A stretch of DNA of 64,000 bases, from the NCBI GenBank assembly GCA_036260485.1, contig DATAMR010000007.1:691-64690 (forward strand), read 5' to 3'. The position numbers were made by a program, and so were the translations under genes. This stretch comes from Solirubrobacterales bacterium (lineage in GTDB: Bacteria > Actinomycetota > Thermoleophilia > Solirubrobacterales > 70-9). The notes beneath the pieces are model-generated. The model did no database searches. It was not told where the DNA came from and saw only the letters and a program-made list of their open reading frames with translations. Shown in pieces: positions 26,665 to 53,518 of the stretch. Each line of letters begins with the position of its first letter. Position 1 is the stretch's first letter.

Positions 26665-27647
26665 CAGAGCTCCAGGCCCTCGGCGAGCGCGAGCGCGTCG
26701 CCGAGCCAGTCGTGCCGCCGCTCCTCCGGCGGCTCCCACTCGGGCGGGGCCCAGCCGAGCCACTGGATCGCGACCCGCAGGCGGGCGCGGTCGAGGTCGC
26801 GCTCGTCGAATTTCGGCACCCCCGGCTCGGCCGCGTAGGCGGCGGCGATCGCCCGGCGGTCCGCGTCGGGCCAGCCGCTGACCAGCGCCGCCAGGTCGGT
26901 CAGGCCCGGACCGGCCGCCGCCAGCTCCCAGTCGACCGGCGCCACCCGCGGATCGGATTTCTGGCCCAGCGGGGTGTGGCCGAAGTCGGCTGCGACGAGC
27001 ACGTTGGAAGCGTAGAACTCGCCGTGGAGCGCGGTCCGGGGCAGGGCGAGGAGAGCTTCGACGACCTGCTCGTGGCGCGCGGCCAGCCACTCGACCGCCT
27101 GCGGGTCCGCGGCGAACTCGCGCGCTCGCTCCATCCAGCGGCGGTAGAAGGCGGCGTCGTGCTCGATCAGCGGCGCCTCGGAGCGGCAGCGGTCGAGCTC
27201 GGGCGCGAGGGCGACGTGGAAGCGGGCGAGCCAGCGCGCCGCCTCCTCCCACAGCTCCCTCTCCCCCACCTGGAAGAGCTCCCGCCCCTCGACCCACTCG
27301 ACGAAGAGCCAGCGCCGCCCCCCGTCCTCGACCGCGCCGAAGAACTCGGGCGGGCCGGCCGGCGCCCGCGGCAGCAGCGCCCGGTAGGCCGCCGGCTCCC
27401 GCGCTGGGTCGTGGAGGAAGCGGGGCTTGGCGAGCTGGGCGGCCGGCTCGAGCTCCTCCCAGCCGAGGCGCTTGAACGCGAGCCGCGCCGGCCCCCTCCC
27501 GCCCAGCTCCACCCGCAGCTCCTCGATCGGGAAGCTGGTCCGGTAGGGCGAGGGGCGTCGCTCCACCTCCCCCACCAGTTCCAGGCCCACGCTCGCCAGC
27601 GCCTGCTCCAGCCCGGCGCGCAGTTCGGCGTCGCTCGGCGCGTCCAT
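26664..27647 (-). CDS. Glycan operon gene 18/19: APH/choline-kinase-like phosphotransferase
   Basis: ATG 27647. The Brenner-like loop reads LHGEFYASNVLV (Glu where Asp is usual), followed by VDWELAAAG. Confidence 0.65.
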   Translation of the reverse strand: MDAPSDAELRAGLEQALASVGLELVGEVERRPSPYRTSFPIEELRVELGGRGPARLAFKRLGWEELEPAAQLAKPRFLHDPAREPAAYRALLPRAPAGPPEFFGAVEDGGRRWLFVEWVEGRELFQVGERELWEEAARWLARFHVALAPELDRCRSEAPLIEHDAAFYRRWMERAREFAADPQAVEWLAARHEQVVEALLALPRTALHGEFYASNVLVAADFGHTPLGQKSDPRVAPVDWELAAAGPGLTDLAALVSGWPDADRRAIAAAYAAEPGVPKFDERDLDRARLRVAIQWLGWAPPEWEPPEERRHDWLGDALALAEGLEL

Positions 27648-27649
27648 CG

Positions 27650-32231: not shown

Positions 32232-32234
32232 CGC

Positions 32235-33530
32235 CTAGGAGGGCAACGGGCGCCGCCGCGCTCCCGGTACCCGCGGCAGGAGGCGGGGGCTGTGCCGAGC
32301 CAGGATCGCGGTTTCGCGCAGCGCCCTGCCCCGTTCTCCGTCGCGCAGCGACCGGCCGATCTGGGCGACCAGCAGCTCGCCGTAGTACTGCTTCCAGAAC
32401 CGGCGCGCAGCTCTGTAGGACGCCTTCAGCTCCGGGGTCTCGCGGGCGTAGGGCCGCTGGCGGCGGACCGCGGCCAGGCTCTGCACCAGCATCCGCCCCG
32501 CGTCGCCGCTGGAGTTGCCGCCGTGGGTGCGGTGCTCGGCGATCAGCTCGCCGTGGCTCCAGAACGGGAACTGGCGGGCGATTTCGAGGTTGAGGCCGAA
32601 ATCGGCGGTCTCCTCGAGCTTCGGGTCGAAGCCCTCGACGTGCTCGAACACCGCCCGCCGGTAGATCGAGCGGGCCGGGAATCCCGCCCAGTTTTCGGTC
32701 AGCAGGCGGGCGTAGTGGTCGCGGCGCACGACCGGCTGCTCGAAGGTCTCGATCGGGGCGCCGTCCTGGGCGATCCGCCGGAAGTGGCCGGCGGCGGCGG
32801 CGGCCTCGGGGTGCTCCCTCAGCTCGGCGAGGCCGGTCTCGATCGCCCGCGGCAGCAGCCGGTCGTCGGCGTCGAGGAAGACGAGGAAGTCGCCGCCCGT
32901 GTTGCGGATGCCGAAGTTCCGTGCCCCCGCCATGCCGCGGTTCTCGCAGCGCAGGCAGCGCACCCCCGGGTAGCGAGCGGCGATCTGCGAGGCGTTGTCG
33001 CCGGATTCGTCGTCGACGACGAGGACCTCCAGGTGCGGGTAGGACTGGGCCAGGACGCTCTCGATCGCCTCGCCCAGATAGTGGGCCTGGCCGTAGCAGG
33101 GGATCACGACCGAGACCAGTTCGGCGAACTCGCCGGCCCGGTCGCGGCGCCAGGTGTGGCGGCCGCGGACGACCCCGAACGGCACCCGCTGCTGGCCCTT
33201 CAGCACCGCCGCGAGCTCGATCTCGAACTCCTGCGGGGTCCCGACCAGGTTGATCGTCGTCCGGAAACCGGACCGGCCGGCATCGGGGTACTCGGGAAAG
33301 GCCTTGGCGAGGTCGGGACGCTCGGCCCTCACCGCCGCGCGCCAGAAGGGCTTGCCGTCGATCAGAAACTCGACCGCGACCACCCGGGTCTCCTCGCCGA
33401 GCGCCCAGCCGAGCAGGTCCACCGCCTGGGCGTCGAGGGTCGCCCCCGCCTTCGGCTCGTCGACGAAGGCGCCGTGCAGCTGCGCCGGGGGCGAGACCGA
33501 GACGTCGAGGAATTCAACCAGTGCGCCCAT
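32235..33530 (-). CDS. Glycan operon gene 14/19: module A + GT2 glycosyltransferase
   Basis: ATG 33530 with a GGGAGGA SD. SVVIPCYGQAHYLGEAIESVLAQ ... VVDDESGD ... FLDADD. Confidence 0.8.
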   Translation of the reverse strand: MGALVEFLDVSVSPPAQLHGAFVDEPKAGATLDAQAVDLLGWALGEETRVVAVEFLIDGKPFWRAAVRAERPDLAKAFPEYPDAGRSGFRTTINLVGTPQEFEIELAAVLKGQQRVPFGVVRGRHTWRRDRAGEFAELVSVVIPCYGQAHYLGEAIESVLAQSYPHLEVLVVDDESGDNASQIAARYPGVRCLRCENRGMAGARNFGIRNTGGDFLVFLDADDRLLPRAIETGLAELREHPEAAAAAGHFRRIAQDGAPIETFEQPVVRRDHYARLLTENWAGFPARSIYRRAVFEHVEGFDPKLEETADFGLNLEIARQFPFWSHGELIAEHRTHGGNSSGDAGRMLVQSLAAVRRQRPYARETPELKASYRAARRFWKQYYGELLVAQIGRSLRDGERGRALRETAILARHSPRLLPRVPGARRRPLPS

Positions 33531-33544
33531 CGCCCGATCCTCCC

Positions 33545-35086
33545 TCAGCCGCCGGACCCGTCGTCGAAACGCAGCTCGGCGAAGCGAACCCGCCGCTCCC
33601 CGGGCAGCACGGCGAAGGCCTCGGCCACGCTGCCGGGCGGCAACTGCTGGGCGTTGACGGTGGTGCGGAAGCCGGGGCTGCCGACCTCCAGGCCGGGGAA
33701 CCCGCGCTCGATGTCGGGCCGCGGCACGTCAACCGGCGCCCGCCACAGCGGCTCGCCGCCGACCCGCAGCTCGATCGCCTCGACCGGCTCGTCGCGCCCC
33801 AGCACCCAGCCGATCATCGTCACCGCGTGGGCGGGCAGCGAGGCGCCCGGGACCGGGGCCTCGAGGTTCGCCCCGGCCAGCTCCTCGGGCAGCCGCTCCT
33901 CGCAGTGAATCTCCACCCGCCGCGTCGGCCGCGTCGCGACCCGGGCGCCGTCGGCGCGCAGCGGCAGCTCGAAGACGCTGGCCGCGGCGTCGTCCCAGAC
34001 CTCGCGCGCCTCGCGCTCGAGGTACTCGCGCAGTCCGTCCCTGCCCGCCAACCACCCACGGGCGCTGCCGGGGACGACGACGAAGCAGCCGCCCTCCCCC
34101 GTCGCCTCGGTCTCGCCGCGGTAGTCGGGCTGCGCCGGCGCCAGGTCGGCGGCGGCGCGGCGGATCGTCTCCAACTCGGTCACCTCGCGGCCGTCGCGGC
34201 GCGGCAGGTTGCGAGAGTGGCGGCCGTTGAAGTAGGGCTTCATCTCGCGCCGCGGGTCGACGAGGACGACGCAGGCGCCGAAGGGAACGCCGAGCCGCTC
34301 GACCGCCAGCTGCGCGCCGCGAAACTGGAGGCAGCGCTCGACCAGCTCGTCCTGGCCGGGAAGCTCGGGCCGCAGCTGCTCGTAGAAGCGCAGGTCCTCT
34401 TCGATCTGGGAGATCCGGTCGAGGGCGGAGAACATCCCGCCTTCGTGGACCCGGTAGGCGGCCAGCGGCTCGGGGATGTAGCCGATCGGCCCGCGCTCGG
34501 CGCAGCGGATGTGGATCAGCCAGTCGATCCAGGCGGAGTCGAAGGCCCACTCCGGCAGCTCGGCGACGATCTCGCGGCGGAACATCATCGCCGGCGAGGG
34601 GACGAAGCACTCGGTGAGGATGTCCTCCAGCGCGAAGCTCGACTCTGCCAGCGCCGGGGTCGTCACCCCCGAGGGGGTGCCGGCGGCGTCGTAGACGAGG
34701 CTCGCGTCGTGGAAGCAACTGGCGCGCTCCGGGTGGGCTTCCAGGTGCTCGACCTGGCGGCGCAGCTTCGCCGCCGAGGTCCAGTAGTCGTCGCCGTCGA
34801 GATAGGCGACGAAGCGGCCGCGGGTCGCGTCGAGCACCCGGCGCAGGATCTCGCCATGGCCGACGTTCGCCGCCGGCAGCACCGCGCGCACCAGGGTCGG
34901 GTGGCGCTCGGCGTAGCGCTCGACGATCTCGCGGGTGCCGTCGGCCGAGCGGTCCTCGCCGATCACCAGCTCGAACTCGAAGGGGGCCTCCTGGAGCAGC
35001 ACGCTCTCGATCGCCTGGGCGACGAAGGGGGCGTGTTCGTAGGTCCGCATCGCGACGCTGACCAGGGGAGCGGGCGCCTCGGTCAC
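33545..35086 (-). CDS. Glycan operon gene 13/19: GT2 + degenerate module B + C-terminal module A
   Basis: GTG 35086 (VTEAPAPLVSVAMRTYEHAPFVAQAIESVLLQ). Contains IGEDRSADGT and YLDGDDYW. GTGA overlap. Confidence 0.8.
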   Translation of the reverse strand: MTEAPAPLVSVAMRTYEHAPFVAQAIESVLLQEAPFEFELVIGEDRSADGTREIVERYAERHPTLVRAVLPAANVGHGEILRRVLDATRGRFVAYLDGDDYWTSAAKLRRQVEHLEAHPERASCFHDASLVYDAAGTPSGVTTPALAESSFALEDILTECFVPSPAMMFRREIVAELPEWAFDSAWIDWLIHIRCAERGPIGYIPEPLAAYRVHEGGMFSALDRISQIEEDLRFYEQLRPELPGQDELVERCLQFRGAQLAVERLGVPFGACVVLVDPRREMKPYFNGRHSRNLPRRDGREVTELETIRRAAADLAPAQPDYRGETEATGEGGCFVVVPGSARGWLAGRDGLREYLEREAREVWDDAAASVFELPLRADGARVATRPTRRVEIHCEERLPEELAGANLEAPVPGASLPAHAVTMIGWVLGRDEPVEAIELRVGGEPLWRAPVDVPRPDIERGFPGLEVGSPGFRTTVNAQQLPPGSVAEAFAVLPGERRVRFAELRFDDGSGG

Positions 35087-36414
35087 GATCCCAGCCCCCC
35101 TTCGAGGTGCTCGAAGCGGGCGCCGGGACGGCCGACGCCGCGCCGCCGGTAGCGCAGCAGGGCGCCGCGGTCCCAGCGGGCGAGCGTGCGCAGGCTGCCC
35201 AGCACCGCGCCCCATTCCCGCCGCCGCCAGGCGTTGGCGACGCGCTCGACCAGCGCCTCGCCCTGCTGGGCGCGGGTGTTGCGGATGCCGAGCCGCCGCG
35301 CGGCCCGCTCCTCGGAGCCGCGCAGGCCGCGCCGCTGGCCGTTCAGGACCTGGATCTGCGAGCTGAGGACGAGGCCGGCGTTGCGGGTCGTGTTGGAGCC
35401 GTGGCGGCGATACTCGGTCACCACCTCCTCGTGGCAGAGGACCGGGAAGGCCCGGGCCAGCTTCAGGTAGAGCTCGTAATCGTCGGCCGCCGCCCGCTCC
35501 TCGTTGAAGCCGCCGACCGCCTGCAGCGCCTCACGCCGGTAGACGAGCGAGGATCCCGACCAGATGAAGCATTCCTCCAGCAGCTTCAGGTAGTGGTCGC
35601 GGCTGACGAGCGGCTGGCGGGCTTCGCGCACGACCCGGCCGTCGCGGCCGATGTCGCGCGGCATCCCGGCGGCGAAGGCGGCCTCCGGCTCCTCCGCAAG
35701 GCGCCCCACCCCCACCTCGAGCGCCCGCGGCAGCAGCCGGTCGTCGGCGTCGAGGAAGACGACGTACTCGCCCGTGGTCTCGGCCAGGCCGCGGTTGCGG
35801 GCGGCGGCGACGCCGCGGTTCGGCTGCCGCACGCGCCGCACTCCCGGGTAGCGGGCGGCGACCTCGCAGCTGTTGTCCTCGGAGCCGTCGTCGACTACCA
35901 CCAGCTCGAGCCGCCGGTGGGTCTGGGCCAGCACGCTCTCGATCGCCTCGCCGAGGTAGTGGGCCTGGTTCCAGCATGGGATCACGACCGAGACGAGCGG
36001 CGGATCGGCGCCGGGGGCGGCGCCCTCCTCGCGCCGGACCTGAACCGTGCCGACCTCGGGCCGGGTTCCGTCCCCGAGCACCGCCCGCAGGGCCAGCTCC
36101 AGCTCCTCGCCGTCGCGCAGCGCCGCCAGGTTGGCGCCGACCCGGAAGCCGGAGGTCGCCGCCGTCGCGGCGGCGAAGGATTCGGCGACGCCGGGGCGTT
36201 CGACGCCGAGCTCGGCGCCGGCGACCAGGCGCGCGTCGTGGACAAGCTCGACCGCCCCGAGCGGCTTCCCGGTGGGCACGACCCAGCCCGCCAGGCGCAG
36301 CTCGCCGGGCTCGACCAGCGACCCCGGCTCGGGATAGTCGACCCGCCAGCCCTCGACGCCGGCCGGCGTCGGGCGCTCCTCGATCGCGACGACCCTGAGC
36401 AGGCGGGCGCTCAA
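35083..36414 (-). CDS. Glycan operon gene 12/19: module A + GT2 glycosyltransferase (close paralog of gene 14)
   Basis: TTG 36414 in a TTGA overlap. VSVVIPCWNQAHYLGEAIESVLAQ ... VVDDGSEDN ... FLDADD. Confidence 0.75.
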   Translation of the reverse strand: MSARLLRVVAIEERPTPAGVEGWRVDYPEPGSLVEPGELRLAGWVVPTGKPLGAVELVHDARLVAGAELGVERPGVAESFAAATAATSGFRVGANLAALRDGEELELALRAVLGDGTRPEVGTVQVRREEGAAPGADPPLVSVVIPCWNQAHYLGEAIESVLAQTHRRLELVVVDDGSEDNSCEVAARYPGVRRVRQPNRGVAAARNRGLAETTGEYVVFLDADDRLLPRALEVGVGRLAEEPEAAFAAGMPRDIGRDGRVVREARQPLVSRDHYLKLLEECFIWSGSSLVYRREALQAVGGFNEERAAADDYELYLKLARAFPVLCHEEVVTEYRRHGSNTTRNAGLVLSSQIQVLNGQRRGLRGSEERAARRLGIRNTRAQQGEALVERVANAWRRREWGAVLGSLRTLARWDRGALLRYRRRGVGRPGARFEHLEGGLGS

Positions 36415-37427
36415 CCGAACAGGCGGCTGATGAGGCCGCGTCGCCGGATCTCGAGGACGATCGACCCGATCGGGGTGCGCTCGCCGCCGATCAGGCCCCG
36501 CACCGCCAGCTCGTGCCGTCCTTCGCCGCTTCCCTGGACGACGAGGCGGAAGCCGGCGCGATCGGCCCCTGGGGTCTCGGGATAGGCGCCCGCGACCCCG
36601 GGGCGCTCGATCTCCACCGGCGTGGTCGCCACCATCTGGGTGCCGGCCCAGACCTCGACCGCCTCGACCGCCTGCTTCTTGCCCACCGCCCAGCCGACGA
36701 TCTTCAACGCGTTGGTATCGAGCTCGTCTCCAGTCGCGGGGGCGTCGAGGTGGGCTTGCCGCAGGCCACCCTCCGGCTCCGCCGGGGCGACCTCGACTAC
36801 CCGAATGCTTTCCCGCCGAGCCACCGCGGGATTGTATCCGCGACTCGCGTCGTTCCAGGACTTTCCCCCCCGGCGGGCACGTCGCGACCGCTTCGGCTTG
36901 CGCCCCTCGACGAAGAGGCTCTCCTCCTCGCGGTTGTCGAGCGCGACGATCTCGGCGACGCCGCTGGCGGTCTGGCCGAAGCCGCACTCGCGGACGTCCT
37001 CGAAGCCGGCTCGCTCGAGCAGCTCGACTGCGAAGTCGGCGGTGAAGAGCGTGCGCGAGTACCCGTACCAGAGCATGTGCACGATGAACCGCCCGCCGGC
37101 GCTCGAGACCTCCTCCGGGTCGACCTTGAAGTAGCCCTCCTCGCCGCCGAGATAGGCCTCGATGCCGCGGCGCAGGTCCGGCAGCGCCAGCCGCAGCGTT
37201 CCCCCCGGCGCCAGGACCCGCCCCAGCTCTTCCAGCGCCGGGACCAGCTCGGGGTAGGCGAACTCCGGCAGGGCGTGGATGCTGACCGCGAAATCGATGC
37301 TCTCGCTCTCCAGCGGCAGGCCCGCCCGGATGTCGGCGACGAGGTCGACGCCGGGCTGCTCCTTGACGTCGGAGTTGATCCAGCCCGCCGCGACGTGCTC
37401 GCCGCAGCCCCAGTTGAGCCGCCTCAA
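36411..37427 (-). CDS. Glycan operon gene 11/19: class I SAM-dependent methyltransferase + C-terminal module A
   Basis: TTG 37427 with AGGAGG 8 nt upstream and a TTGA overlap. LNWGCGEHVAAGWINSD ... LAPGGTLRLALPD. Confidence 0.75.
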   Translation of the reverse strand: MRRLNWGCGEHVAAGWINSDVKEQPGVDLVADIRAGLPLESESIDFAVSIHALPEFAYPELVPALEELGRVLAPGGTLRLALPDLRRGIEAYLGGEEGYFKVDPEEVSSAGGRFIVHMLWYGYSRTLFTADFAVELLERAGFEDVRECGFGQTASGVAEIVALDNREEESLFVEGRKPKRSRRARRGGKSWNDASRGYNPAVARRESIRVVEVAPAEPEGGLRQAHLDAPATGDELDTNALKIVGWAVGKKQAVEAVEVWAGTQMVATTPVEIERPGVAGAYPETPGADRAGFRLVVQGSGEGRHELAVRGLIGGERTPIGSIVLEIRRRGLISRLFG

Positions 37428-38548
37428 GCCGCCACCTCCTCGAGCAGGCGGGCGAGGACCTTGCGGGCGTCGAAATGCTCGGCGGCGAGCTCGCGGGCGG
37501 CGCGCGAGTGCCGCTCCCAGTCGCCCTGCACCGCCTCGATCCCGGCCCGGGCGCCCTCGAGGTCGTCGAAGGCGATCAGCCCTTCCCCCGTCGGGTAGCG
37601 CTCGCTGAAGCCGGTGTCGAGGGCGACGACCGGCCTGCCGCTGGCAAGGTAGGCGAGGCTGCGCTCGCCGAGCCAGCCACCGCGGGCCTCGACGTACATC
37701 TCCTTCGCCACCATCAGCTCGCCGCGCGAGCCCTGGACGTAGCGGCGGTAAGACTCCGGGTCGGCGGCGACCGCGGCGGGATCGGCGAGCAGCCAGCCGT
37801 TCTCCTCCAGCGCCTGGAGATCGGCGGCGTCGGCGGCGTCGATCTCCAGCGCCAGCTCCAGCTCCGGGCCGACCAGCGCCGGCAGAGCGACGAGCTTGCG
37901 CAGCTCGTGCGCCCGCAGGCCGAAACGGCGGCCTGCGAACTCGACCGGGTCGTAGGGCCCGCGCCAGCTGCCGACGCTGGTGAACCGCGCGCCCGGCTCG
38001 GCCACCGGCCACTGCTCGGGCAGGATCGGGTGCGGCGAGGTCACCCAATCGATTCCGCAGGTCGGCACCAGGCAGCCGGGCTCGCCGATCCGCTCGCCGA
38101 CGGTGACGTGGGCGTCGTAGCCGGCGTAGGGATCGTGGAGGCCGAGCTCGCACCACATCTGGCCGAAGCCGGGGTCGATGTCGAGGAAGACGTTGCGGGG
38201 CGAGGCGGCGAGCAGCTCCTCGTCGTCGGTGAACCCCATCACGTCGAGGAGCAGGTCGGCGTCGGCGACCCACTCGATCGCCTCGCGGCGCGGCACCCCG
38301 ATCGCCTCGCCCTCGGCGAAGAGCGAGTAGGAGTCCGCGAGCCCGGCGCCCTCCATCACCGCCTCCAGCCACGCCACGCAGCGCTCGCGGTCGGCCGCCG
38401 CGGGGACGGTCTCGGCGCCGATCCGGTCGAGAAAGAGGACCTCGTGTCCCAGCGCCCGGAACCCGAGCAGGTAGTTGAGCAGCGCCCAGGCGTGGCCGCC
38501 GTACCCCGGGCGCTGAGCCAGCGCGCCGCCCACCGCCACGCGGGTCAA
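37424..38548 (-). CDS. Glycan operon gene 10/19: CgeB-like GT-B paralog 3
   Basis: TTG 38548. GGHAWALLNYLLGFRALGHEV, DIDPGFGQMW, GWLGERSLAYLASGRPVVALDTGF...YPTGEGLIAF. Confidence 0.6.
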   Translation of the reverse strand: MTRVAVGGALAQRPGYGGHAWALLNYLLGFRALGHEVLFLDRIGAETVPAAADRERCVAWLEAVMEGAGLADSYSLFAEGEAIGVPRREAIEWVADADLLLDVMGFTDDEELLAASPRNVFLDIDPGFGQMWCELGLHDPYAGYDAHVTVGERIGEPGCLVPTCGIDWVTSPHPILPEQWPVAEPGARFTSVGSWRGPYDPVEFAGRRFGLRAHELRKLVALPALVGPELELALEIDAADAADLQALEENGWLLADPAAVAADPESYRRYVQGSRGELMVAKEMYVEARGGWLGERSLAYLASGRPVVALDTGFSERYPTGEGLIAFDDLEGARAGIEAVQGDWERHSRAARELAAEHFDARKVLARLLEEVAA

Positions 38549-38551
38549 GGG

Positions 38552-39874
38552 TCAGCTCTCCGAGGCCACGGCCGACGTCGGCTCGTATCCGAACTGGACC
38601 AGGACCGGGTCGAGCACCTCGGCGCAGGCCCGCACCAGCTCGGGCGGGAGGTCGCGCCGCCAGCGGCCGACCGAGGCGGAGACCTTCTCGCTGGTCCGGT
38701 GCTCGTCGACGACGGGCGCGTCGCGCTCGGCGCGCTCGGCGACCGCCGCCGCCTTCTCCTCGTCGGCGTCGAGACCGAGGTAGCGCATCATTCCCCCCAG
38801 CGTCGCCGCCGGCTCTTCGATCAGGTCCTCGTAGCGGACCAGGTGGATCGAGTCCCCCCGCTGGTCGAGCCGGCGCTTCAGCCACTCGGCCGAGCTGAGC
38901 AGGACGGTTTCGACGTACTCCTCGTCGCTTCCCGCTTTGCTGCGGCCGAAGGCGTCCCAGCCGCGCTTGCGGTTGAAGGCGATCACCGAGCAGAGGATGT
39001 CGCGGAAGTCGCGGACCAGGACCACCTCGCGGGCGCCGGGGTAGATCTCCGCCAGCAGGTCGGGGACGACCTGGTGAGGGAGGAACTTCTCGACGAAGTA
39101 GCGGGGGGCGGCGCCGGGCTCGGCCAGGCGCGCGTAGAAGGTCTCGATTCGCTCGCTGCAGAGCGCCGTCAGCTCGTCGACCGCGGCCCCTCCCAGCCAC
39201 CCTTCCAGGGCCGGCGCGCCTCCCATCCCGAACTTGAGGTCGGGGCGGTCATACCACCAGCTCGGCTGCCCGATCGGACCGGGTTCGAGCTGGGCGAGAT
39301 AGCTCTGCGGCCGGGCCAGGGTCTGCAGGACGCTTGCCCAGTAGCTGCCGACGCGGGCGTCCGAAGACCAGGGGCTGACGCAGACCGACTCGGCGAGGCA
39401 GCTCAGCACCCAGACGAGCCAGGTCGAGCCGCTGCGGCCGATCGTGTTGACCATCAGCGGCTGGATCAGCTCCTCGCCGGCGGCGGGAAGCGCAGTGCGG
39501 CTGCCGCGGACCGTGGCGATCTCGGTGCGGACGCCCTCCTCCCGCCAGACCACGACCGAGAGCTCGAACTCCCGGCGCAGATCGAGCGTCCCGACCGGCA
39601 AGCGAAACCCGCAGGCGCCGGCGTGGGCCGTGTCGGAGAAGGCGGCGGCGATGTCCTCCCGGGCCTCGCCGGGCTCGGCGGCCGCCACCACCCGTCCCTC
39701 CTGCAGCGCCTCCACCCGGGTCAGCGGCCCCGCCTCGGCCAGCGCCCAGCCGACCAGCTCGAACGAGTAGGTGGCGCTGGCGGCGCCGCCCTTCGGTCCG
39801 TCGATGCTGCAGCCGAGCAGACCTCTGGGGGTGTGCTGGCGCTGCTCGACCTCCTCGATCGTCACCCGCGTCAT
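38552..39874 (-). CDS. Glycan operon gene 9/19: module A + sulfotransferase
   Basis: ATG 39874 with a GGAGGA SD. PAPS 5'-phosphosulfate loop TIGRSGSTWL and 3'-phosphate block LVRDFRDILCSV. Confidence 0.8.
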   Translation of the reverse strand: MTRVTIEEVEQRQHTPRGLLGCSIDGPKGGAASATYSFELVGWALAEAGPLTRVEALQEGRVVAAAEPGEAREDIAAAFSDTAHAGACGFRLPVGTLDLRREFELSVVVWREEGVRTEIATVRGSRTALPAAGEELIQPLMVNTIGRSGSTWLVWVLSCLAESVCVSPWSSDARVGSYWASVLQTLARPQSYLAQLEPGPIGQPSWWYDRPDLKFGMGGAPALEGWLGGAAVDELTALCSERIETFYARLAEPGAAPRYFVEKFLPHQVVPDLLAEIYPGAREVVLVRDFRDILCSVIAFNRKRGWDAFGRSKAGSDEEYVETVLLSSAEWLKRRLDQRGDSIHLVRYEDLIEEPAATLGGMMRYLGLDADEEKAAAVAERAERDAPVVDEHRTSEKVSASVGRWRRDLPPELVRACAEVLDPVLVQFGYEPTSAVASES

Positions 39875-39902
39875 CCGGCTTCGATCCTCCCCGATCGGCC
39901 GG

Positions 39903-41207
39903 TCACGAATCCTGGTAGCCGAACTCGCGCAGCAGCGGGCCCAGCTCCTCCTCGCAGACCGCCGCGATCTCCTCCGGCAGGTCATCTCGCCAGCGCCCGA
40001 TCGAGGCCGCCGGGTCGGCGCTGGTGCGGTGATGGTCCATCGAGGCGGTGTCCTCCTTCATCCGCTGGATCGTCGCCGCCACCAGTTCGGGGTCCGAAGC
40101 CAGCCCGAGCTGCTCGAAGAGCGTGGTCAGGGCCGGCTCGGGATCGAGGACCAGGTCCTCGTAGCGGACGAGGTGCGGCGTGGTGGCGGCCCGCTGCATG
40201 CGGGTCGAGAGGATTTCGCCGGATTCGCGCAGCGTGGTGCGCACGTACTCGCCGTCATCGCCTCCCTCGCTGCGGCCGAAGGCGTCCCATCCGCGCTTGC
40301 GGTTGAAGGCGATCACCGAGCAGAGGATGTCGCGGAAGTCCCGCACCAGGACGACCTCGCGGGCGCCCGAGTAGATCTCCCCGAGCAGGTCGGGGACGAC
40401 CTGATGGGGCAGGTACTTCTCGACGAAGTAGCGGGGCCTCGTCTCCCCCGCGACGTGCGCGTAGAAGGCCTCGATCTGGACCCGCGACATCGCCACCAGC
40501 GAATCGACGGCCTCGCTGCCGAGCCAGCTTTCGAGCTCCTCGTCACCGAGCTCCTGACCGCCCTCCAGCCACCAGCGGGGGGCGTCGAGGTCGGGGGGGT
40601 CGAACGGAGCGAGGTAGGCCGCGGGCTCGGAGAGGCCCTGCATCACGTTGGTCCAGTAGGTCGAGACGCGCGCGTCCTTGATGAAGGGCGAGAAGGCGAC
40701 GACCTCCGGGTGGGAGCTGAGCAGGGTGACCAGCAGGGTCGAGCCGCTGCGGCCGATCGTGTTGACCATCAGCGGCTGGATCTCCTCCCCGCCGGAGGTC
40801 GGCAGACGCCGGCGCGAGCCCCGCAGTCGCGCCAGCGGCAGGCGCGTGTCGTCCTCCAGCTTGGCCCGCAGCACCAGCTCGAACTCCGCCGGCAACCGCA
40901 GGGAGTTGACGGTCAGGCGGTAGCCGCTTTGGCCGGCGCTTTCCACCTCGGGGAACCCCTGGGCGATGTCCTTGCGCTCCCGGTCGAGCGGGGTCACCGC
41001 CACCGGCCGCTCCTCATACAAGGCTTCGATCCGCTCGACCCGCAGCCGCCGGCTGAGGATCCAGCCTTCGATCGCGAACGTGTAGGAATCGGCCGCCGAT
41101 CCCGGTGCCGGGCTGTCCATGTTGGCGTCGTGGACGTAATCGCTTTCGCCGCGATTGACGTCGACGTCGGCGATCTCGACGACCGCGGTCGCATTCCGGT
41201 CGGCCAT
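39903..41207 (-). CDS. Glycan operon gene 8/19: module A + sulfotransferase (tandem paralog)
   Basis: ATG 41207 (or GTG 41210) with a GAGGAGG SD. TIGRSGSTLL and LVRDFRDILCSV. Confidence 0.8.
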   Translation of the reverse strand: MADRNATAVVEIADVDVNRGESDYVHDANMDSPAPGSAADSYTFAIEGWILSRRLRVERIEALYEERPVAVTPLDRERKDIAQGFPEVESAGQSGYRLTVNSLRLPAEFELVLRAKLEDDTRLPLARLRGSRRRLPTSGGEEIQPLMVNTIGRSGSTLLVTLLSSHPEVVAFSPFIKDARVSTYWTNVMQGLSEPAAYLAPFDPPDLDAPRWWLEGGQELGDEELESWLGSEAVDSLVAMSRVQIEAFYAHVAGETRPRYFVEKYLPHQVVPDLLGEIYSGAREVVLVRDFRDILCSVIAFNRKRGWDAFGRSEGGDDGEYVRTTLRESGEILSTRMQRAATTPHLVRYEDLVLDPEPALTTLFEQLGLASDPELVAATIQRMKEDTASMDHHRTSADPAASIGRWRDDLPEEIAAVCEEELGPLLREFGYQDS

Positions 41208-43057
41208 CACGCCTCCTCGGCGGTCGCGGTCCGCTCCGCCCGCTCGCCCCAGCGCTGATCGAAGAGCCAGGCGTTGAAGCGGTTGCTCATGTCCGTCGCC
41301 GAGGGGACGTAGGAGCGCCCCTCGAGGTGGAAGAGCTCGACCTCGGGCACGTACCAGGCCTCGAGGTCGCGCTCGGCAAGCTCCATGCAGAGCTCGGCGT
41401 CCTCGTAGCCGCCCTTCACGTAGTCGACCGAGAACCCGCCGAGATCCTCGTAGAGCTCGCGCTCTAGCAGCAGGCAGGCGCCGCTCAGCGCCGGCACCGC
41501 GCGCCGCTCTTCGGCTTTGGGGAAGCCACGGTGCAGGCCCTTGAAGGCGTGCGCCAGCTGCCAGCCCCCGCTCGCCGGGTTGCGGCGGAACTCGAGCCCG
41601 GCGTGCTGGATCGAGCCGTCGTCGTAGAGCAGCTTCGGCGCCACGACGCCGGCCTGCGGCAGCCCGTCGTGGGCCTCGACCAGCCGCGGCAGCCAGCCGG
41701 GCCGGTCGGGCAGGACGTCGGAGTTCAGCAGTAGGACCAAGCGGCCGCTCGCCAGGGAGGCGCCGAGGTTGGAGGCGACCGCGAAGCCGCCGTTGCGGGA
41801 GAGGATCGCGAGCCGGAACGGGATCCGGTAGAGCTCGTGCAGCTCGGCGACCCGCGGCAGCAGCTCCGGCGCCAGCTCGGGCGAGTCGAGGACGTAGATC
41901 AGCTCGGCGCCGAACATCGCCGGGTCGTTGGCGAACTGCGCCAGCTGGTGCTCGATCAGGTCGACGCGGCGGTAGAGCGGCACGATCACCGAGACGTCGG
42001 GCTCGGCCGGGGGCGTGCCGAAGTCCTCGACCTCGTCGACCTCCACCCTCCCGGACAGCTCCCCCTGGAGGCGGACCACGGCGGGCGCAAGCTGGTCCAT
42101 CAGCGGGGTGTCGACGCGGCGCTCGCGGACGAGCTCGCCGAGAATCGTGTCGCGGACCGCTAGCGGGTCCACTGTCGCCGCCGGGGCGCTGGCCTCGATC
42201 GCGACTCCGGCCGAGTTTTCCAGCTCGAAGACCCAACCCTCGGCGAGGCGGCTCGGGCTCTCGACCTCGAAGAAGCAGACGAAGCCCGGTTTTGCGACCG
42301 GCCGCGGCGCGCCGCGGAAGAGCTCCTCGAGGTCGGGGCGCGGAACCCGGAAGAGGCGCTCGAGGATCGGCGTCCGCGAGCCCTCCGGCGAGACCGCGTC
42401 GAGGCGGACGATCGGCGCCTGGTCGTCGCGGGCCCAGCCGCGGACGAAGAAGGTCCGGTCGTCGACCCTGGCGACGGCGCCGACGTGCAGGCCCTGCACG
42501 TCGTCGGCGCGCAGTTCGGTCCGCGGGTAGGGGTCGCGCAGGGCCTCGCGCAGGACGAAGAGGCTCTTGGCCAGCCCGACCGGGTCGAGGCTGCCGGCGT
42601 GCTCGCCCGGGGTCGCCGCGAGGAAGCCGAGCAGCTGCTCCCTGGTCTCGGCTTCGAGGCCCGCGAGCTTCTCCCTGATCGTCGTCCGCAGATCGACCGC
42701 GACGGCCGGCGCCAGCGCCGGGCCGAAACCGATCTCCTCCTCGCCGCCCCGCAGGCGCAGCTCCACCGTGCGGCCGCCGACGGGACGCGAGACCCAGAGA
42801 GTCAACGCCGTGGTGGCGGCGTCCTCGCCCTCCTCGGCGGAGGGCGGGAGCCAGCGGGTCTCGACCTCGACCGGCTCGCCGTCGACGGTCAGGTCGACCT
42901 CGGGTTCCGCGGCCGCCCGGAGATCGGCGACGAGCAGCAGCACGTCCGTCGCCAGCCAGCTGAGCAGCGCCGGCGCCGGCGCCTCGGCCTCGCCGTTGCC
43001 GCTCGCGAACGGGCCGCCGACCAGCTGCTCGGCGCCGCCGCCGAGTTCCGGCTTCAC
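41207..43057 (-). CDS. Glycan operon gene 7/19: long N-terminal region with a module A variant + GT2
   Basis: GTG 43057 in a GTGA overlap. VSVIVPLYRRVDLIEHQLAQ ... YVLDSPE ... LLNSDV ... EDAELC. Confidence 0.75.
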   Translation of the reverse strand: MKPELGGGAEQLVGGPFASGNGEAEAPAPALLSWLATDVLLLVADLRAAAEPEVDLTVDGEPVEVETRWLPPSAEEGEDAATTALTLWVSRPVGGRTVELRLRGGEEEIGFGPALAPAVAVDLRTTIREKLAGLEAETREQLLGFLAATPGEHAGSLDPVGLAKSLFVLREALRDPYPRTELRADDVQGLHVGAVARVDDRTFFVRGWARDDQAPIVRLDAVSPEGSRTPILERLFRVPRPDLEELFRGAPRPVAKPGFVCFFEVESPSRLAEGWVFELENSAGVAIEASAPAATVDPLAVRDTILGELVRERRVDTPLMDQLAPAVVRLQGELSGRVEVDEVEDFGTPPAEPDVSVIVPLYRRVDLIEHQLAQFANDPAMFGAELIYVLDSPELAPELLPRVAELHELYRIPFRLAILSRNGGFAVASNLGASLASGRLVLLLNSDVLPDRPGWLPRLVEAHDGLPQAGVVAPKLLYDDGSIQHAGLEFRRNPASGGWQLAHAFKGLHRGFPKAEERRAVPALSGACLLLERELYEDLGGFSVDYVKGGYEDAELCMELAERDLEAWYVPEVELFHLEGRSYVPSATDMSNRFNAWLFDQRWGERAERTATAEEA

Positions 43058-44358
43058 GACGCCGCTCCGATCTCGACCCGGCGTTCGGAGAGCAGGCCTT
43101 CGTAGAGATCCTCCAGCTCCTCGACGTGCGTTCGCATGGGGTAGACCGGCACGATCCCGGCGGTGAGGCTGCGCCAGGTCTGGGTGGAGCCGGCCGCCTG
43201 CGAGATCACCCGCGCCAGGTCCTCGGGGTCGCCGACCCGGAAGTGGAGGCCGTCGACGCCGTCGGCGACCTTCTCCGCCATGCCGCCGATGTTGCTGCAG
43301 ATCACCGGCCGGCCGTGCATGAAGGCCTCCTGGATCACCAGCGGCGAGTTCTCCCACCAGCGCGAGGGGACGAGGACGTAGTCGACGTTCTCCATCAGCG
43401 ACCCGAGCTGGTCGTGGTCGTAGCGGCCGATCATCACCACCCGGTCGCCGCTCTCCTCCAGCAGCGCGGCGAATTCCTCCTGGAACTCCGGCGGCTGGAT
43501 CTCGAGGTTGGCGCCGTGCAGGTAGATCGTTGCGTCGACGTCATCGTCGGCGAGGCGTTTGGCGGCTTGGAGGACGACGTTGACCCCCTTGTAGTGGCTG
43601 AACTGGCCGAAGAAGCCGAAGCGATTGCGCTTTTTCCGCCGCGGGTTGGCGGGCTCGTAGGAGAGCGGCAGGCGGCCGTACTCCTCGACCTTGATCTTCT
43701 CGGTCGGGATCCCCCAGTCGACGTAGCGGTCCCGCAGCTGCGCGCTCGGGGCGATGAAGAGGTCGACGTGCTCCATGTGCGACTGGATCAGGCGCTTGCG
43801 CATGAAGAACTCCTGCGGAGAGACGTCGGGGAAGCACTCGTGGCAGCGGCGCGGCGACTCCTCCAGGCAGGGCTCTTCGTCGGTCGCCCGCAGCAGCTGG
43901 CCGTGGCGGTGGCAGATCGGCAGGAACTCGTGCAGCGTGTAGACGATCGCCGCCTCGGGGAGGGTGTTGCGGACCTCGCGGATCGCTTCGAGGCCGATGA
44001 ACAGCGTGTGCTGGAAATGGACCACGTCGGGCTGCTGAGCGACGAGGAAGTCGCGCAGATGAGTGGTGATCGTCGACTTCTCGCGGGTCGAGTTGAGCAG
44101 CCAGTCGAAGTCGTTCAGCTCGGTGTAGAAGAAGTACTGCCCCGGGTCGTTGGCGTCGACCCCGGTCAGCAGGGTCCCCTCGTGGTAGCGCGAGGAGGTC
44201 GAGAATGGCGGGCCGGTGCGGGCGAGGAAGAGCGACTCCCACTCGCTTTCGTCGCGCATCGCCTCGTGCAGCTCGAAGGCGTAGGCCTCGGCGCCGCCGG
44301 GGCGGATCACGGGGTGGTTGTGCGACACGTAGAGGACCTTCTTCGGACTCAGTTCCAT
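43054..44358 (-). CDS. Glycan operon gene 6/19: GT4-family (GT-B, Glycos_transf_1) glycosyltransferase
   Basis: ATG 44358 with a GAAGGAGG SD. C-terminal ENSPLVIQEAFMHGRPVICSNIGGMAEKVADGVDGLHF (EX7E-type block). Confidence 0.85.
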   Translation of the reverse strand: MELSPKKVLYVSHNHPVIRPGGAEAYAFELHEAMRDESEWESLFLARTGPPFSTSSRYHEGTLLTGVDANDPGQYFFYTELNDFDWLLNSTREKSTITTHLRDFLVAQQPDVVHFQHTLFIGLEAIREVRNTLPEAAIVYTLHEFLPICHRHGQLLRATDEEPCLEESPRRCHECFPDVSPQEFFMRKRLIQSHMEHVDLFIAPSAQLRDRYVDWGIPTEKIKVEEYGRLPLSYEPANPRRKKRNRFGFFGQFSHYKGVNVVLQAAKRLADDDVDATIYLHGANLEIQPPEFQEEFAALLEESGDRVVMIGRYDHDQLGSLMENVDYVLVPSRWWENSPLVIQEAFMHGRPVICSNIGGMAEKVADGVDGLHFRVGDPEDLARVISQAAGSTQTWRSLTAGIVPVYPMRTHVEELEDLYEGLLSERRVEIGAAS

Positions 44359-45194
44359 GCGGCCTCCTTCGACCGGAGCGAGATTGGGGTTGAGGTTCTG
44401 GAGCCGTCTGGCAGCTCGTAGAGGACGCAGATACGACTGCGGACGGCAAGTCGGCGGCAGCTGCCGTCGAGGAAAGCGGCAAGGGCGGGGCGCCGGGCGA
44501 CCGTCCACAACAGCGCGGCGGGCACGACTAGGTAGCGGACTCCTTCGCCGCCGAGGGTCCGCAGCCGGGAGACGGCGTGCCGGCCTTCGTCGGCCTCCAG
44601 CGGCAGGTGCCGGCCAGCGGCGTCGTGGGGGAAGTGCCAGGCCGGGCGGCCGAGGTCGAGCAGGGCGTCGTCGCCGTCGCTCAGCACCAGCACCACCTCG
44701 TCCTCCGGGAGCAGGCTGCCGAGCAGGGCCCGAGTAGCCGGCAGGCAGCGCCGCTGCAGCTCTCCCGCCGCGAGATCGGGGACCGCGCGCGGCGCCGCCG
44801 CCGGCAGCTCCAGCAGGCGGTAGACCCGGCAGACCTCCTCCGGCGCGTCGAGCCGCTCATAGCGGCCGCGCAGGTGCAGCTCCAGCTCCGGGTAATGCTC
44901 CAGCCACCAGTAGTAGATCGCGGGCAGGACCAGATAGGCGCCGCCGGCGCCGCGCAGCGCCTCCAGGTGCTCGACCGCCCAGGCGCCGTCGATCGGGTGG
45001 TGGCCCGCGTACTGGCCGCTGCCGGAGCGGGGGAAGTGCCAACCGCTGCGCCCGTCGAAGCGGACCAGGTTCTCATCACCCTTGCTGACCACGAGCACGA
45101 CCGCCCCGACCGGGGTGATCTCCTCGACCAGGGCCGCGACCCGCGGCGCCAGCTCCTCATAGGCGACGTTGCCGCCGACCACGGTCAGGCTCAT
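44349..45194 (-). CDS. Glycan operon gene 5/19: stand-alone protein made of two tandem module B copies
   Basis: ATG 45194 in an ATGA overlap. Copy 1 reads VLVVSKGDENLVRFDGRSGWHFP...YAGHHPIDGAWAVEHLEALRGAGGAYLVLP...WWLEHYPEL. Copy 2 is more diverged. Confidence 0.65.
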   Translation of the reverse strand: MSLTVVGGNVAYEELAPRVAALVEEITPVGAVVLVVSKGDENLVRFDGRSGWHFPRSGSGQYAGHHPIDGAWAVEHLEALRGAGGAYLVLPAIYYWWLEHYPELELHLRGRYERLDAPEEVCRVYRLLELPAAAPRAVPDLAAGELQRRCLPATRALLGSLLPEDEVVLVLSDGDDALLDLGRPAWHFPHDAAGRHLPLEADEGRHAVSRLRTLGGEGVRYLVVPAALLWTVARRPALAAFLDGSCRRLAVRSRICVLYELPDGSRTSTPISLRSKEAAWN

Positions 45195-46540
45195 CGGCTC
45201 GCCTCCGTCGGCACCGGGCTCGGCCCCAGCGCGTAGATCGCGCAGGACTCGTGCCGCTCGCCGCTCGCCCGGTCCGCGAGGTGCGCGGCCAGGCCGCGGT
45301 AGTGCTCGAGCCACCAGGCCTCGGCGGCGGGGACGACGAGGTATTCGGCGCCGACCGCCCGCTCGGCCTCGAGCAGGGCGATCGCCTCCTCCTCGTCGGC
45401 GGGATGGCGGCCGAGGTAGCGGCCGTCCGCGCCGCGGGGGAAGTGGAGGCACTCGCGGCCGCGGGCCCGCAGCAGCTCGGCGTCGCCGCGGCTGACGACC
45501 AGCGCCCGCGCGCCCTCGGGGAGGGTGCGCTCGACCTGCTCGCGGACAGCGGCGACGACGCGCTCGTAATCGAGCGCCGCCGGCTCGACCTCGATGCCGC
45601 GGTCGGCGAGCTCGGCGCTCAGCCGCGTCAGCTCACGGCCGAGGTCGGCGCTGCGCCGGCCCTGGGCTCGCAGCAGCGGCTCCAGTTCGCCCTCGTGGCC
45701 GTCGCTGCGCTCGACGCTAGCCAGCAGCGGCGAGACCGAGATCCGCAGCGGGTGCGCGCTCGGGTACTCGACCTCGATCAGCCCGTCGGCGGCGTAGATC
45801 TCGAGGTCGTCGCGGTAAACCCGCGCCCGCCAGCGCTCGCGGTAACGGGCGACGGAGGGCTCGAAGTCCCCGGTCCCGCGAGTGGCCGACTCGAGGTGGG
45901 TGACGACGGCCGCGGGGGTGTAGCGCACCTCTCTCCCGGCCTCGCCCAGCCGCAGGCAGAGGTCGACGTCCTCCATCGAGTTGAGGAAGCCTTCGTCGAA
46001 CCCCCCCACCCGCTCGAAGGCCTCGCGCCGCACCAGCATGCAGGCGCCGGTCACCGCCTGCAGCCGCCGCTTTCGGTTCGGCGCCGGATGGCCGGCTGGG
46101 AAGCCGGCGTAGAGGTTGTGGGGGTAGCCGTCCTGGCCGAAGACGACGCCGGCGTGCTGGACGGTGCCGACCGGGTGCAGGAGCTTGGCGCCGACGACCG
46201 CCGCCTCGGGATGGGCTTCGGCGCAGTCCAGCAGCGCCGCCAGCCAGCCGGACTGCGGCTCGGTGTCGTTGTTGAGGAAGACGAGGTGCTCGCCGCGGGC
46301 CAGCGCCGCGCCGGCGTTGCAGGCGCCGGCGAAGCCGGCGTTTCGCTCCAGGCGCAGAGCACGGATCGCCTCGCCGAAGCCGTCCAGCATCCGCGGAGTG
46401 CGGTCCTCGGAGGCGTCGTCGACGACGATCGCCTCGCAGCCGGCCGGGAGGTCGGCGAGGAGCAGCCGCAGGCAGCGCTCGGTGAGGCCGGCGCGGCCGT
46501 GTACCGGCACCACCACCGAGGCCCTGATCGCGGCGGTCAT
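45191..46540 (-). CDS. Glycan operon gene 4/19: GT2 + linker + module B
   Basis: ATG 46540 in an ATGA overlap. SVVVPVHGRAGLTERCLRLL ... VVDDASEDRT ... FLNNDT ... MEDVDLCLR. Confidence 0.8.
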   Translation of the reverse strand: MTAAIRASVVVPVHGRAGLTERCLRLLLADLPAGCEAIVVDDASEDRTPRMLDGFGEAIRALRLERNAGFAGACNAGAALARGEHLVFLNNDTEPQSGWLAALLDCAEAHPEAAVVGAKLLHPVGTVQHAGVVFGQDGYPHNLYAGFPAGHPAPNRKRRLQAVTGACMLVRREAFERVGGFDEGFLNSMEDVDLCLRLGEAGREVRYTPAAVVTHLESATRGTGDFEPSVARYRERWRARVYRDDLEIYAADGLIEVEYPSAHPLRISVSPLLASVERSDGHEGELEPLLRAQGRRSADLGRELTRLSAELADRGIEVEPAALDYERVVAAVREQVERTLPEGARALVVSRGDAELLRARGRECLHFPRGADGRYLGRHPADEEEAIALLEAERAVGAEYLVVPAAEAWWLEHYRGLAAHLADRASGERHESCAIYALGPSPVPTEASR

Positions 46541-53422: not shown

Positions 53423-53518
53423 CCGCGCGCGGGCAGGGAACTGCGATCCGCCCTCAGCGCGGAAAGTGCCGTAGGTGACCCCTCGGACGTGGAACTTCTC
53501 CTGTCCGATGTGTACCGA

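Follow-up and report, generated by a model that had tools for sequence, protein, structure and literature searches.

Tandem PAPS-type sulfotransferases with short shared DNA tracts in a glycosyltransferase-rich operon of Solirubrobacterales

We analysed a 64-kb stretch of DNA from an uncultured soil actinobacterium of the order Solirubrobacterales (contig DATAMR010000007.1), hereafter called the window, which has a G+C content of about 72%. Two adjacent genes on its minus strand, designated stfB and stfA, encode proteins that are assigned by family, fold and motifs as genuine sulfotransferases of the type using 3'-phosphoadenosine 5'-phosphosulfate (PAPS). The explanation that we regard, as a whole, as probable is that StfB and StfA form an old pair of PAPS sulfotransferases, predicted to be catalytically intact, soluble, cytoplasmic and PAPS-dependent, which would sulfate a glycan, and that the near-identical DNA tracts shared by the two genes reflect motif conservation and codon bias together with gene conversion.

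Organization of the stfB-stfA pair

Genes were called from open reading frames (ORFs) and G+C content at third codon positions (GC3), and both members of the pair were also placed by their sequence and Pfam matches. The upstream member, stfB (39903..41207), encodes 434 aa, and the downstream member, stfA (38552..39874), for which the alignment with StfB was used as well, encodes 440 aa; these coordinates, and those of all parts of the pair given below, are on the minus strand. The ATG of stfB at 41207 shares one base with the TGA of the upstream gene, which encodes a family 2 glycosyltransferase (GT2), and stfB and stfA are separated by a spacer of 28 nt with a ribosome-binding-like site, GGAGGA, ahead of stfA. 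The two proteins are 50% identical over 429 aa, and the overall DNA identity of the genes is only 62.5%.

Each protein consists of an N-terminal domain, termed module A, and a sulfotransferase catalytic domain. The catalytic domain spans about residues 140-432 of StfB (39912..40790; Pfam, AlphaFold and Foldseek) and about residues 134-433 of StfA (38576..39475; Pfam and alignment with StfB). Both contain the 5'-phosphosulfate-binding (PSB) loop TIGRSGST, at residues 150-157 of StfB (40737..40760) and 144-151 of StfA (39422..39445), and the 3'-phosphate-binding block LVRDFRDILCS, at residues 287-297 of StfB (40317..40349) and 286-296 of StfA (38987..39019). The elements of StfB were assigned by alignment with solved enzymes (tyrosylprotein sulfotransferase 2, TPST2, and the CurM sulfotransferase, CurM ST, for the loop; TPST1/2 for the block), and those of StfA by the motifs and their conservation in homologues. 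StfB is 100% identical to a protein already named 'sulfotransferase [Solirubrobacterales bacterium]' by NCBI, so its annotation as a sulfotransferase is not new. No transmembrane segment was predicted in StfA or StfB, consistent with cytoplasmic sulfation, at the site of PAPS synthesis.

Assignment of StfA and StfB to the PAPS-type sulfotransferases

Both proteins scored well above the gathering cutoffs of two Pfam families. Sulfotransfer_3 (PF13469, cutoff 27) was matched with 53.9 bits by StfA and 54.7 bits by StfB, and Sulfotransfer_1 (PF00685, cutoff 22) with 39.9 and 37 bits, respectively. A preliminary description of this DNA, made from the sequence alone, had identified both products as PAPS-binding sulfotransferases and proposed profile searches with these families and with Stf0. 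The identification was borne out by the Pfam scores as well as by the fold matches and motif alignments described below, whereas the Stf0 family (Pfam Sulphotransf) gave no match to either protein at E<=1. Neither protein had an equivalog in NCBIfam; the NoeE equivalog (NF052394, cutoff 500) was not reached, with 18.7 and 26 bits over the C-terminal third only.

The AlphaFold model of the sulfotransferase domain, built on 34 homologues, had a predicted local distance difference test score (pLDDT) of 86 and a predicted template-modelling score (pTM) of 0.84. The best 50 Foldseek matches of this model in the PDB were all PAPS-dependent sulfotransferases, with E values down to 2e-9, and included CurM ST, TPST1/2, an olefin-synthase sulfotransferase, Stf9 of M. 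avium, cytosolic SULTs and NDST. Placement of the catalytic domain in a P-loop family other than the sulfotransferases, which would have spoken against the assignment, was seen neither in the profile searches nor in the fold searches.

The binding motifs aligned with those of the solved enzymes too. The family profile matched TPST1 at E=1e-8 and CurM ST at 6e-8; the TPSTs were among the best solved matches, yet with 16-20% identity. TIGRSGST aligned with the 5'-phosphosulfate loops VPRSGTT of TPST2 and PRSGST of CurM ST, and LVRDFRDxLCS with MVRDGRASVHS of TPST1/2, which includes the 3'-phosphate Arg and Ser; the reading of the two motifs as 5'-phosphosulfate and 3'-phosphate blocks therefore held when they were set against PRSGTT and VRDGRASVHS of the tyrosylprotein sulfotransferases. 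In the family profile alignment, K264 of StfB aligned with the TPST lysine, and D178-A-R180 appeared, from the flanking alignment, to stand at the place of what we take to be the catalytic E99-T-R101 of TPST2. The residues T150, G152, R153, G155, S156, D178 and R180, as well as E263, K264, R289, D290, R292, D293 and S297, were invariant in 34/34 sequences covering both the StfA and the StfB clade.

Age and conservation of the pair

The homologues fell into two tiers, one with 57-85% identity to StfB and one with about 50%. The lower tier holds the StfA orthologues, including StfA of the window itself (P0115), and both tiers occur on the same contigs. Ten other Solirubrobacterales genomes carried the tandem pair with the gene order kept, five of them contributed by a scan of GTDB, and the set of 11 genomes used for comparison includes that of the window. 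The conserved order, GT2 (about 616 aa)-StfB-StfA-374-aa protein-methyltransferase-GT2, was present in the homologous loci L001, L002, L003, L005 and L006, and also in two further loci listed without DNA. Orthologues were 58-85% identical to the window copy for StfB and likewise 58-85% for StfA, and the paralogues within each genome were 47-54% identical. Since each copy has its own orthologues and the pair is conserved across genomes, the duplication predates the divergence of these lineages, and on these comparisons StfA and StfB are old tandem duplicates that have kept separate identities.

Ten positions were fixed differently between the StfA and StfB clades. Three of them are gains of Trp in StfA (158, 161 and 175), located beside the PSB loop and D178, and the fixed differences as a group suggest stable differences in acceptor handling. 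More distant Solirubrobacterales clusters contained one, two or three genes of the module A-sulfotransferase type. Three such genes lie close together in each of L015, L020, L021 and L023, and two occur in each of L024 and L025; these clusters belong to more distant Solirubrobacterales and to Rubrobacteraceae, and multi-sulfotransferase clusters seem to be common in this group. The same architecture was found at 28-40% identity in Chloroflexota, Gaiellaceae, Rubrobacteraceae and filamentous cyanobacteria. The close relatives carrying the pair are all metagenome-assembled genomes; of the 44 related loci, a single one comes from a cultured organism, the cyanobacterium Dapis sp. BLCC M172 (L039), at about 30% identity. 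A literature search found no paper naming both Solirubrobacterales and sulfotransferase.

Shared tracts and gene conversion

The two genes share tracts far more alike than their overall DNA identity. Positions 38941-39110 and 40271-40440 were 90.6% identical (16 mismatches in 170) and contained an exact string of 50 nt at 38961-39010 and 40291-40340, in agreement with the preliminary description, which had reported near-identical tracts with an identical run of about 50 nt. It had also placed a second shared tract near 39431 and 40741. This tract exists and is exact over 37 nt, but its second copy starts at 40746; the string is part of a 46-nt exact repeat at 39422-39467 and 40737-40782. Only four exact direct repeats of at least 30 nt were present in the whole window.

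The residues encoded by the tracts are the best conserved in the family, and codon choice in this DNA is almost fixed, with about 95% GC at third codon positions; for D, F, C, N, I, Y and Q, two random draws give the same codon with a probability of 0.83-0.95. Tract identity was 0.83 even between StfA and StfB of different genomes, which implies that most of it does not stem from conversion; it was 0.86-0.87 between the paralogues within a genome and 0.83-0.90 between orthologues. It could be argued from this that there was no conversion at all and that the tracts are simply the product of residue conservation at the PAPS motifs and extreme GC3 bias, possibly stronger at critical residues. The across-genome paralogue values (0.825-0.829) are close to the within-genome ones and match those of orthologues, the 50-nt run is barely altered in L002 and L001, and the tract residues D, F, C, N, K and I are effectively single-codon in this genome. 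We nevertheless consider this explanation improbable in view of the run lengths, the synonymous sites and the derived states described next.

At residues shared by the two proteins, the same codon was used in 16/17 and 44/52 cases in the two tracts (10.5 and 33.9 expected), and in 91/143 cases outside them (86.6 expected). In 20,000 simulations under a null model of codon bias alone, with the shared amino acids given, a run of 16 identical codons had P=0.005, and two runs of at least 15 identical codons were obtained in 0/20,000. Run lengths so improbable under codon bias alone indicate that the tracts are real and beyond chance. In addition, of the 720 possible ways to pair the genes, the one that joins each StfA to the StfB of its own genome gave the highest tract identity.

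The history of individual sites was followed with a four-sequence (quartet) test, in which sites were counted as supporting orthology, concerted (within-genome) change or a crossed pairing. For six genomes, the orthology/concerted/crossed counts were 26/108/14 at StfB residues 258-312, compared with 870/148/161 in module A and 1353/266/181 in the remaining sulfotransferase domain. For the 11 genomes they were 75/112/17 in zone 1 and 232/319/75 in zone 2 (both defined below), 3718/453/507 in module A and 5726/692/594 in the remaining sulfotransferase domain. A control restricted to synonymous sites at which all four sequences share the residue gave 46/130/30 in the two zones and 609/182/176 elsewhere for the 11 genomes, and 6/14/2 and 121/24/27, respectively, when the window genome was compared with the others. 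Genome-specific codon preference was rejected as the cause, because concerted and crossed synonymous sites were about equally frequent outside the zones (182 and 176); the contrast with 130 and 30 inside them also argues against conservation and codon bias alone.

A scan with windows of eight codons located the main concerted signal at StfB residues 257-312 and 136-151. The former, zone 2, covers 40272..40439 in stfB and 38942..39109 in stfA and holds the 50-nt repeat; the latter, zone 1, covers 40755..40802 in stfB and 39440..39487 in stfA and overlaps the 46-nt repeat. A nucleotide alignment of the two genes had been suggested as a means of mapping conversion, and the zones located by the scan coincided with the two tracts noted in the preliminary description. 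Three isolated eight-codon windows elsewhere also leaned towards concerted change, with small counts. In L001 and L002, runs of about 20 codons carried derived states common to both paralogues, including a nonsynonymous Ala-to-Ser change, which is again difficult to reconcile with conservation alone.

Two considerations limit the part that can be given to conversion and weigh against our explanation. Judged from the identities above, tract identity is mainly a matter of residue conservation and GC3 codon bias, to which conversion would add a few percent; and the quartet counts come from genome pairs that are not mutually independent, so that the nominal Fisher values (P of 2e-11 and lower) exaggerate the significance. 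With these taken into account, we conclude that the counts point to recurrent short-tract gene conversion between the tandem neighbours. Such recurrence would be possible because selection keeps the identity at the PAPS-binding motifs. The tracts correspond to the codons of the two PAPS-binding regions, where invariant residues and about 95% GC3 would keep enough identity for homologous recombination; conversion would then further homogenise stretches of roughly 50 nt and 170 nt, while the acceptor-facing parts diverge.

The preliminary description had left the choice between recent duplication and gene conversion, and only the latter was retained. If the pair had arisen recently, the tracts would be the parts that have not yet diverged, and the tandem layout and the 90.6% identity over 170 nt would be accounted for. 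Recent duplication was rejected on the overall identities of 62.5% (DNA) and 50% (protein) and on the orthologous pairs in the 10 other genomes, in which each copy has its own orthologues (58-85%) in the same order; orthology sites also dominate outside the tracts (3718/453/507 and 5726/692/594). We regard it as having almost no likelihood.

Localized conversion that lasts for a long time in old prokaryotic paralogues has been reported for the duplicated mtrA of methanogens (PMC4632066) and for RF1/RF2 (PMC4530459). The stf pair resembles these cases in that old duplicates have conserved segments homogenised while the rest diverges. What sets it apart is the shortness of its tracts, about 50 and 170 nt, and their position on the cofactor-binding motifs of tandem neighbours.

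Two possible hybrid genes were also observed. P0069 (L004, 888-2219) and P0075 (L051, 414-1730) resemble StfB up to the 3'-phosphate block and StfA beyond it, and P0069 is a single gene located between the homologues of the GT2 and the 374-aa protein in L004. Either an unequal crossover or an assembly chimera, both at the identical tract, could equally well have produced them. The contigs are short (1.8-2.8 kb), and one is a Logan contig, a type assembled with k=31; for these reasons the hybrids were not taken as proof of unequal crossing-over. Identical tracts of this kind can mislead k-mer assemblers into hybrid genes.

Another exact direct repeat, of 41 nt, was found in a second pair of paralogues of the same operon, at 32844-32884 and 35722-35762. 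The two genes (32235-33530 and 35083-36414) encode GT2 enzymes with module A that are 42% identical as proteins, and the repeat falls in the conserved region VSVVIPC..QAHYLGEAIESVLAQ. It may represent the same combination of conservation and conversion as in the stf pair.

The operon

The stf pair lies in a single-strand operon of about 28 kb (25960..53635, minus strand), delimited by GC3-based gene calling and annotated with Pfam and NCBIfam, whose gene order is kept in L001, L002, L003, L005 and L006. It encodes about 10 glycosyltransferases in all, among them about seven GT2 and one GT4, and a GH2-like domain is fused to a membrane GT2. The other products are an ABC exporter similar to MsbA/PglK/NdvA, four paralogues of a CgeB-like protein, a methyltransferase fused to module A, a WecE-like dTDP-4-amino-4,6-dideoxyhexose transaminase (500 bits, cutoff 375), an APH-family kinase and a YdjC-family protein. 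Genes of acyl-CoA and methylmalonyl-CoA metabolism flank the operon on both sides. Of polymerisation and export machinery, the operon yielded only the MsbA/PglK-like ABC exporter and a single membrane GT2, with no matches to Wzx, Wzy or PCP, and no genes for peptide precursors or polyketides were seen in it. No promoter-like or terminator-like site was detected in 37000-43500, and NCBIfam gave no equivalog for the 374-aa, 281-aa and 763-aa proteins or the kinase.

The unannotated 374-aa protein (37424-38548), whose gene directly follows stfA, has three paralogues elsewhere in the operon, at 28792-29943, at 29940-32231 (N-terminus) and at 46537-49008 (N-terminus). Judged via the homologue in L004, the copies are 27-37% identical, and one of them has a weak match to Pfam Glyco_trans_1_2 (CgeB-like). 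A second repeated module, of about 115 aa with the motif VVSxGD...WHFP...WWLEHY and without a Pfam match, occurs twice in the 281-aa protein (44349-45194) and once in the 449-aa GT2 (45191-46540), where it makes up the C-terminal 120 aa; its copies are 37-47% identical.

Probable acceptor and comparison with known systems

From the content of the operon, the product is probably a sulfated surface glycan. The roughly ten glycosyltransferases would build it in the cytoplasm, probably with a lipid as carrier, and it would also be methylated and carry a 4-amino-4,6-dideoxyhexose. StfA and StfB would use PAPS to sulfate this glycan, each at a hydroxyl or on a sugar of its own. We infer that sulfation takes place in the cytoplasm before export, which would proceed via the MsbA/PglK-like ABC transporter. 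A doubly sulfated glycan is the best reading and a plausible one, for which we infer both the acceptor and the two distinct sites. The acceptor could also be an oligosaccharide or a glycolipid; a peptide or a lipid is less likely.

Several observations do not favour a glycan acceptor. The nearest relatives of known structure are enzymes whose acceptor is protein tyrosine (TPST) or a polyketide intermediate (CurM ST) and not a sugar, and the match to the carbohydrate sulfotransferase NoeE is far under the cutoff (26 against 500 bits). No priming phosphoglycosyl transferase was recognised in the operon, and no genes for PAPS synthesis (adenosine 5'-phosphosulfate kinase, ATP sulfurylase) or CysQ were found in the window or in the 21-kb orthologous loci.

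The enzymes might accordingly be thought to sulfate the tyrosine of a protein or peptide, as TPST and RaxST do, or a lipid or small molecule in the manner of CurM ST, given that TPST1/2 and CurM ST are their best sequence and fold matches among solved structures and that no curated carbohydrate-sulfotransferase family was matched above its cutoff. The nearest PDB neighbour says little, however, as few bacterial carbohydrate sulfotransferases have, to our knowledge, been solved. The genes belong to a tight co-directional operon, in which the start of stfB overlaps the stop of a GT2 gene and about 10 glycosyltransferases and sugar-modifying enzymes are encoded in an order conserved across genomes; module A is common to the sulfotransferases, three GT2 enzymes and a methyltransferase; and the operon shows no peptide-precursor or polyketide genes. 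A non-glycan acceptor is hence considered improbable, and sulfation of a glycan is preferred.

The PRSG(S/T)T loop and the R...S 3'-phosphate block of TPST1/2 and CurM ST (PDB 5wrj, 3ap1 and 4gbm) align with the Stf proteins, as does their catalytic Lys. Their identity to the Stf pair is 15-20%, and they are without module A. The TPSTs are Golgi membrane proteins with tyrosine as acceptor, and the acceptor of CurM ST is a beta-hydroxyacyl-ACP. The rhizobial Nod-factor enzymes NodH/NoeE and the mycobacterial Stf0/Stf9 are PAPS-dependent sulfotransferases working on glycoconjugates, and Stf9 was among the fold matches of StfB; unlike StfA and StfB, they lack module A, and the match of NoeE to the pair is confined to a weak C-terminal one (19-26 bits against the cutoff of 500). 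They act on lipo-oligosaccharides or trehalose, outside large glycosyltransferase operons.

The closest experimentally supported analogue of the stf operon is the synechan (xss) cluster of Synechocystis PCC 6803, which encodes eight glycosyltransferases and two sulfotransferases for a polymer with eight sugars and two sulfates (PMC8205485). Its sulfotransferases are of the PF00685/PF13469 type, and sulfation takes place in the cytoplasm before export (PMC8205485). Both clusters have two sulfotransferase genes among glycosyltransferase genes, an arrangement found here with conserved order. They differ in export, with Wzx/Wzy/PCP in synechan and an MsbA/PglK-like ABC exporter without Wzx/Wzy matches in the stf operon, in the Ig-like N-terminal domain, which has not been reported for synechan, and in the host, a cyanobacterium rather than a member of Actinomycetota. 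Within Actinomycetota, the wps-1 cluster of Actinoplanes missouriensis contains two sulfotransferases, a methyltransferase, a kinase-like protein and a glycoside-hydrolase-like protein, its sulfated polysaccharide being a prediction only (PMC13390465). All of these components have counterparts in the stf operon; wps-1 is of the Wzx/Wzy type, however, and its sulfotransferases are non-paralogous and of different families (Gal/GlcNAc and heparan-sulfate types). The range of known cases given in the preliminary description, Nod factors and mycobacterial sulfolipids, was consequently too narrow, since clusters with two sulfotransferases exist for synechan (PMC8205485) and are predicted in Actinoplanes (PMC13390465).

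The synechan cluster bears on the division of labour between the two enzymes as well. StfA and StfB could be redundant isozymes, or one of them a non-catalytic partner, and the product would then carry one kind of sulfate. All catalytic and cofactor motifs are common to both proteins, deletion of xssE, one of the two synechan sulfotransferase genes, had little phenotype (PMC8205485), and the possible single hybrid B/A genes occur on two short contigs. Against this, both copies have been kept side by side down to 58% orthologue identity, the clades differ at fixed positions including the three Trp gains of StfA beside the PSB loop, and related lineages have three such genes; the motif residues, invariant in both clades, argue against a dead copy. 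Redundancy is unlikely on this evidence, and we retain two enzymes with distinct sites as the preferred reading.

Module A and its copies in other operon enzymes

A six-frame search of the window with a hidden Markov model (HMM) of module A identified six clear copies (E 1e-42 to 1e-50). Those of StfB (40812..41189, minus strand, E=1e-49) and StfA (39497..39874, minus strand, E=3e-47, supported by the module A alignment) are N-terminal, which agrees with the earlier observation that each sulfotransferase sits behind its own module A. The others are N-terminal in the GT2 of 32235-33530 (33159-33521), C-terminal in the GT2 of 33545-35086 (33569-33925), N-terminal in the GT2 of 35083-36414 (36031-36399) and C-terminal in the methyltransferase of 36411-37427 (36456-36806). 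A marginal seventh match was located in the 616-aa GT2 (42281-42472, E=0.15). The copies are 31-37% identical to each other, with V5, P28, G31, G43, W44, E56, R73, G90, R92 and R117 invariant.

The Pfam family Big_7 (PF17957), a bacterial Ig domain, had no direct match to StfA or StfB at E<=1. An exhaustive profile search with module A retrieved 5462 representative proteins; the top matches were arrays of 5-12 repeats that Pfam assigns to Big_7, as in P0153, where the module A match (139-256) covers the Big_7 match (155-241), and in other matches the module was joined to a sulfotransferase, methyltransferase or GT2 domain. In a word-indexed search, the module A alignment matched only 24 short proteins, which were hardly informative on how the domain is distributed. 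The isolated module was modelled by AlphaFold as an eight-strand beta-sandwich (pLDDT 92). A fold search in the PDB gave nothing at E<0.001; the best matches were weak, all with E>=0.01, and generic Ig-like (TIGIT, NPC2 and macroglobulin domains), without a functional clue. Via the intermediate sequences, module A is classed as an Ig-like domain distantly related to Big_7.

Because six operon enzymes carry module A and W44, E56, R73, R92 and R117 are invariant at 31-37% identity, it is conceivable, if speculative, that module A is a shared recognition or docking domain that holds the tailoring enzymes on one lipid-linked or polymeric intermediate or on each other. The enzymes would then form an assembly line in the cytoplasm, tagged by a common domain, and its product would be a heavily sulfated glycan of the envelope, typical of the abundant but uncultured soil order Solirubrobacterales, whose related clusters have one to three such sulfotransferases. 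More modestly, module A may bind the glycan or its carrier or serve in enzyme docking. In a bolder variant, the 4-amino sugar might be N-sulfated by one of the enzymes, as the operon has no recognised N-acyltransferase.

In L001, module A was also observed as stand-alone ORFs of 140 aa (14390-14812) and 182 aa (17119-17667). They are located where the window has the fusions of methyltransferase and GT2 with module A, and are either split or decayed genes.

Other features of the window

Outside the operon, the segment 58001-60250 has a G+C content of 0.62, compared with about 0.71 in the neighbouring sequence. Its only long ORF (58571-60202, minus strand) is poorly supported by coding statistics and matches no Pfam family. 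The gene at 60278-62338 (minus strand) encodes a membrane protein with eight predicted helices, a GGDEF domain and an HD_5 domain of the HD-GYP type; a link through cyclic di-GMP to the control of the envelope polymer is possible, with metabolic genes lying between this gene and the operon. Next to it, a likely surface protein with five Ig-like Big_3_5 repeats is encoded at 62394-63998 (minus strand), and this gene contains an internal 32-nt exact repeat at 62929 and 63217. Another likely surface protein, with DUF11 and RTX calcium-binding repeats, is encoded at 17083-17907 (minus strand). A bacterial type IB topoisomerase (7558-8583, plus strand) and a release-factor-like protein of the baeRF family (14725-15819, minus strand) are unrelated to the stf pair. 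The window contained no tRNAs.

Implications

Thermoleophilia are a dominant and largely uncultured lineage of soil. If the product of the operon is sulfated, the range of sulfated glycans would extend from cyanobacteria and a few marine bacteria to this lineage, and charged polymers in the envelope could affect water retention, metal binding and soil aggregation. The stf pair is also a clean natural example of how selection on a cofactor-binding motif preserves DNA identity for recombination. Since selection on the motifs keeps recombinable identity, old paralogues of this kind would evolve as mosaics, in which the PAPS-binding parts are homogenised and the acceptor-facing parts diverge.

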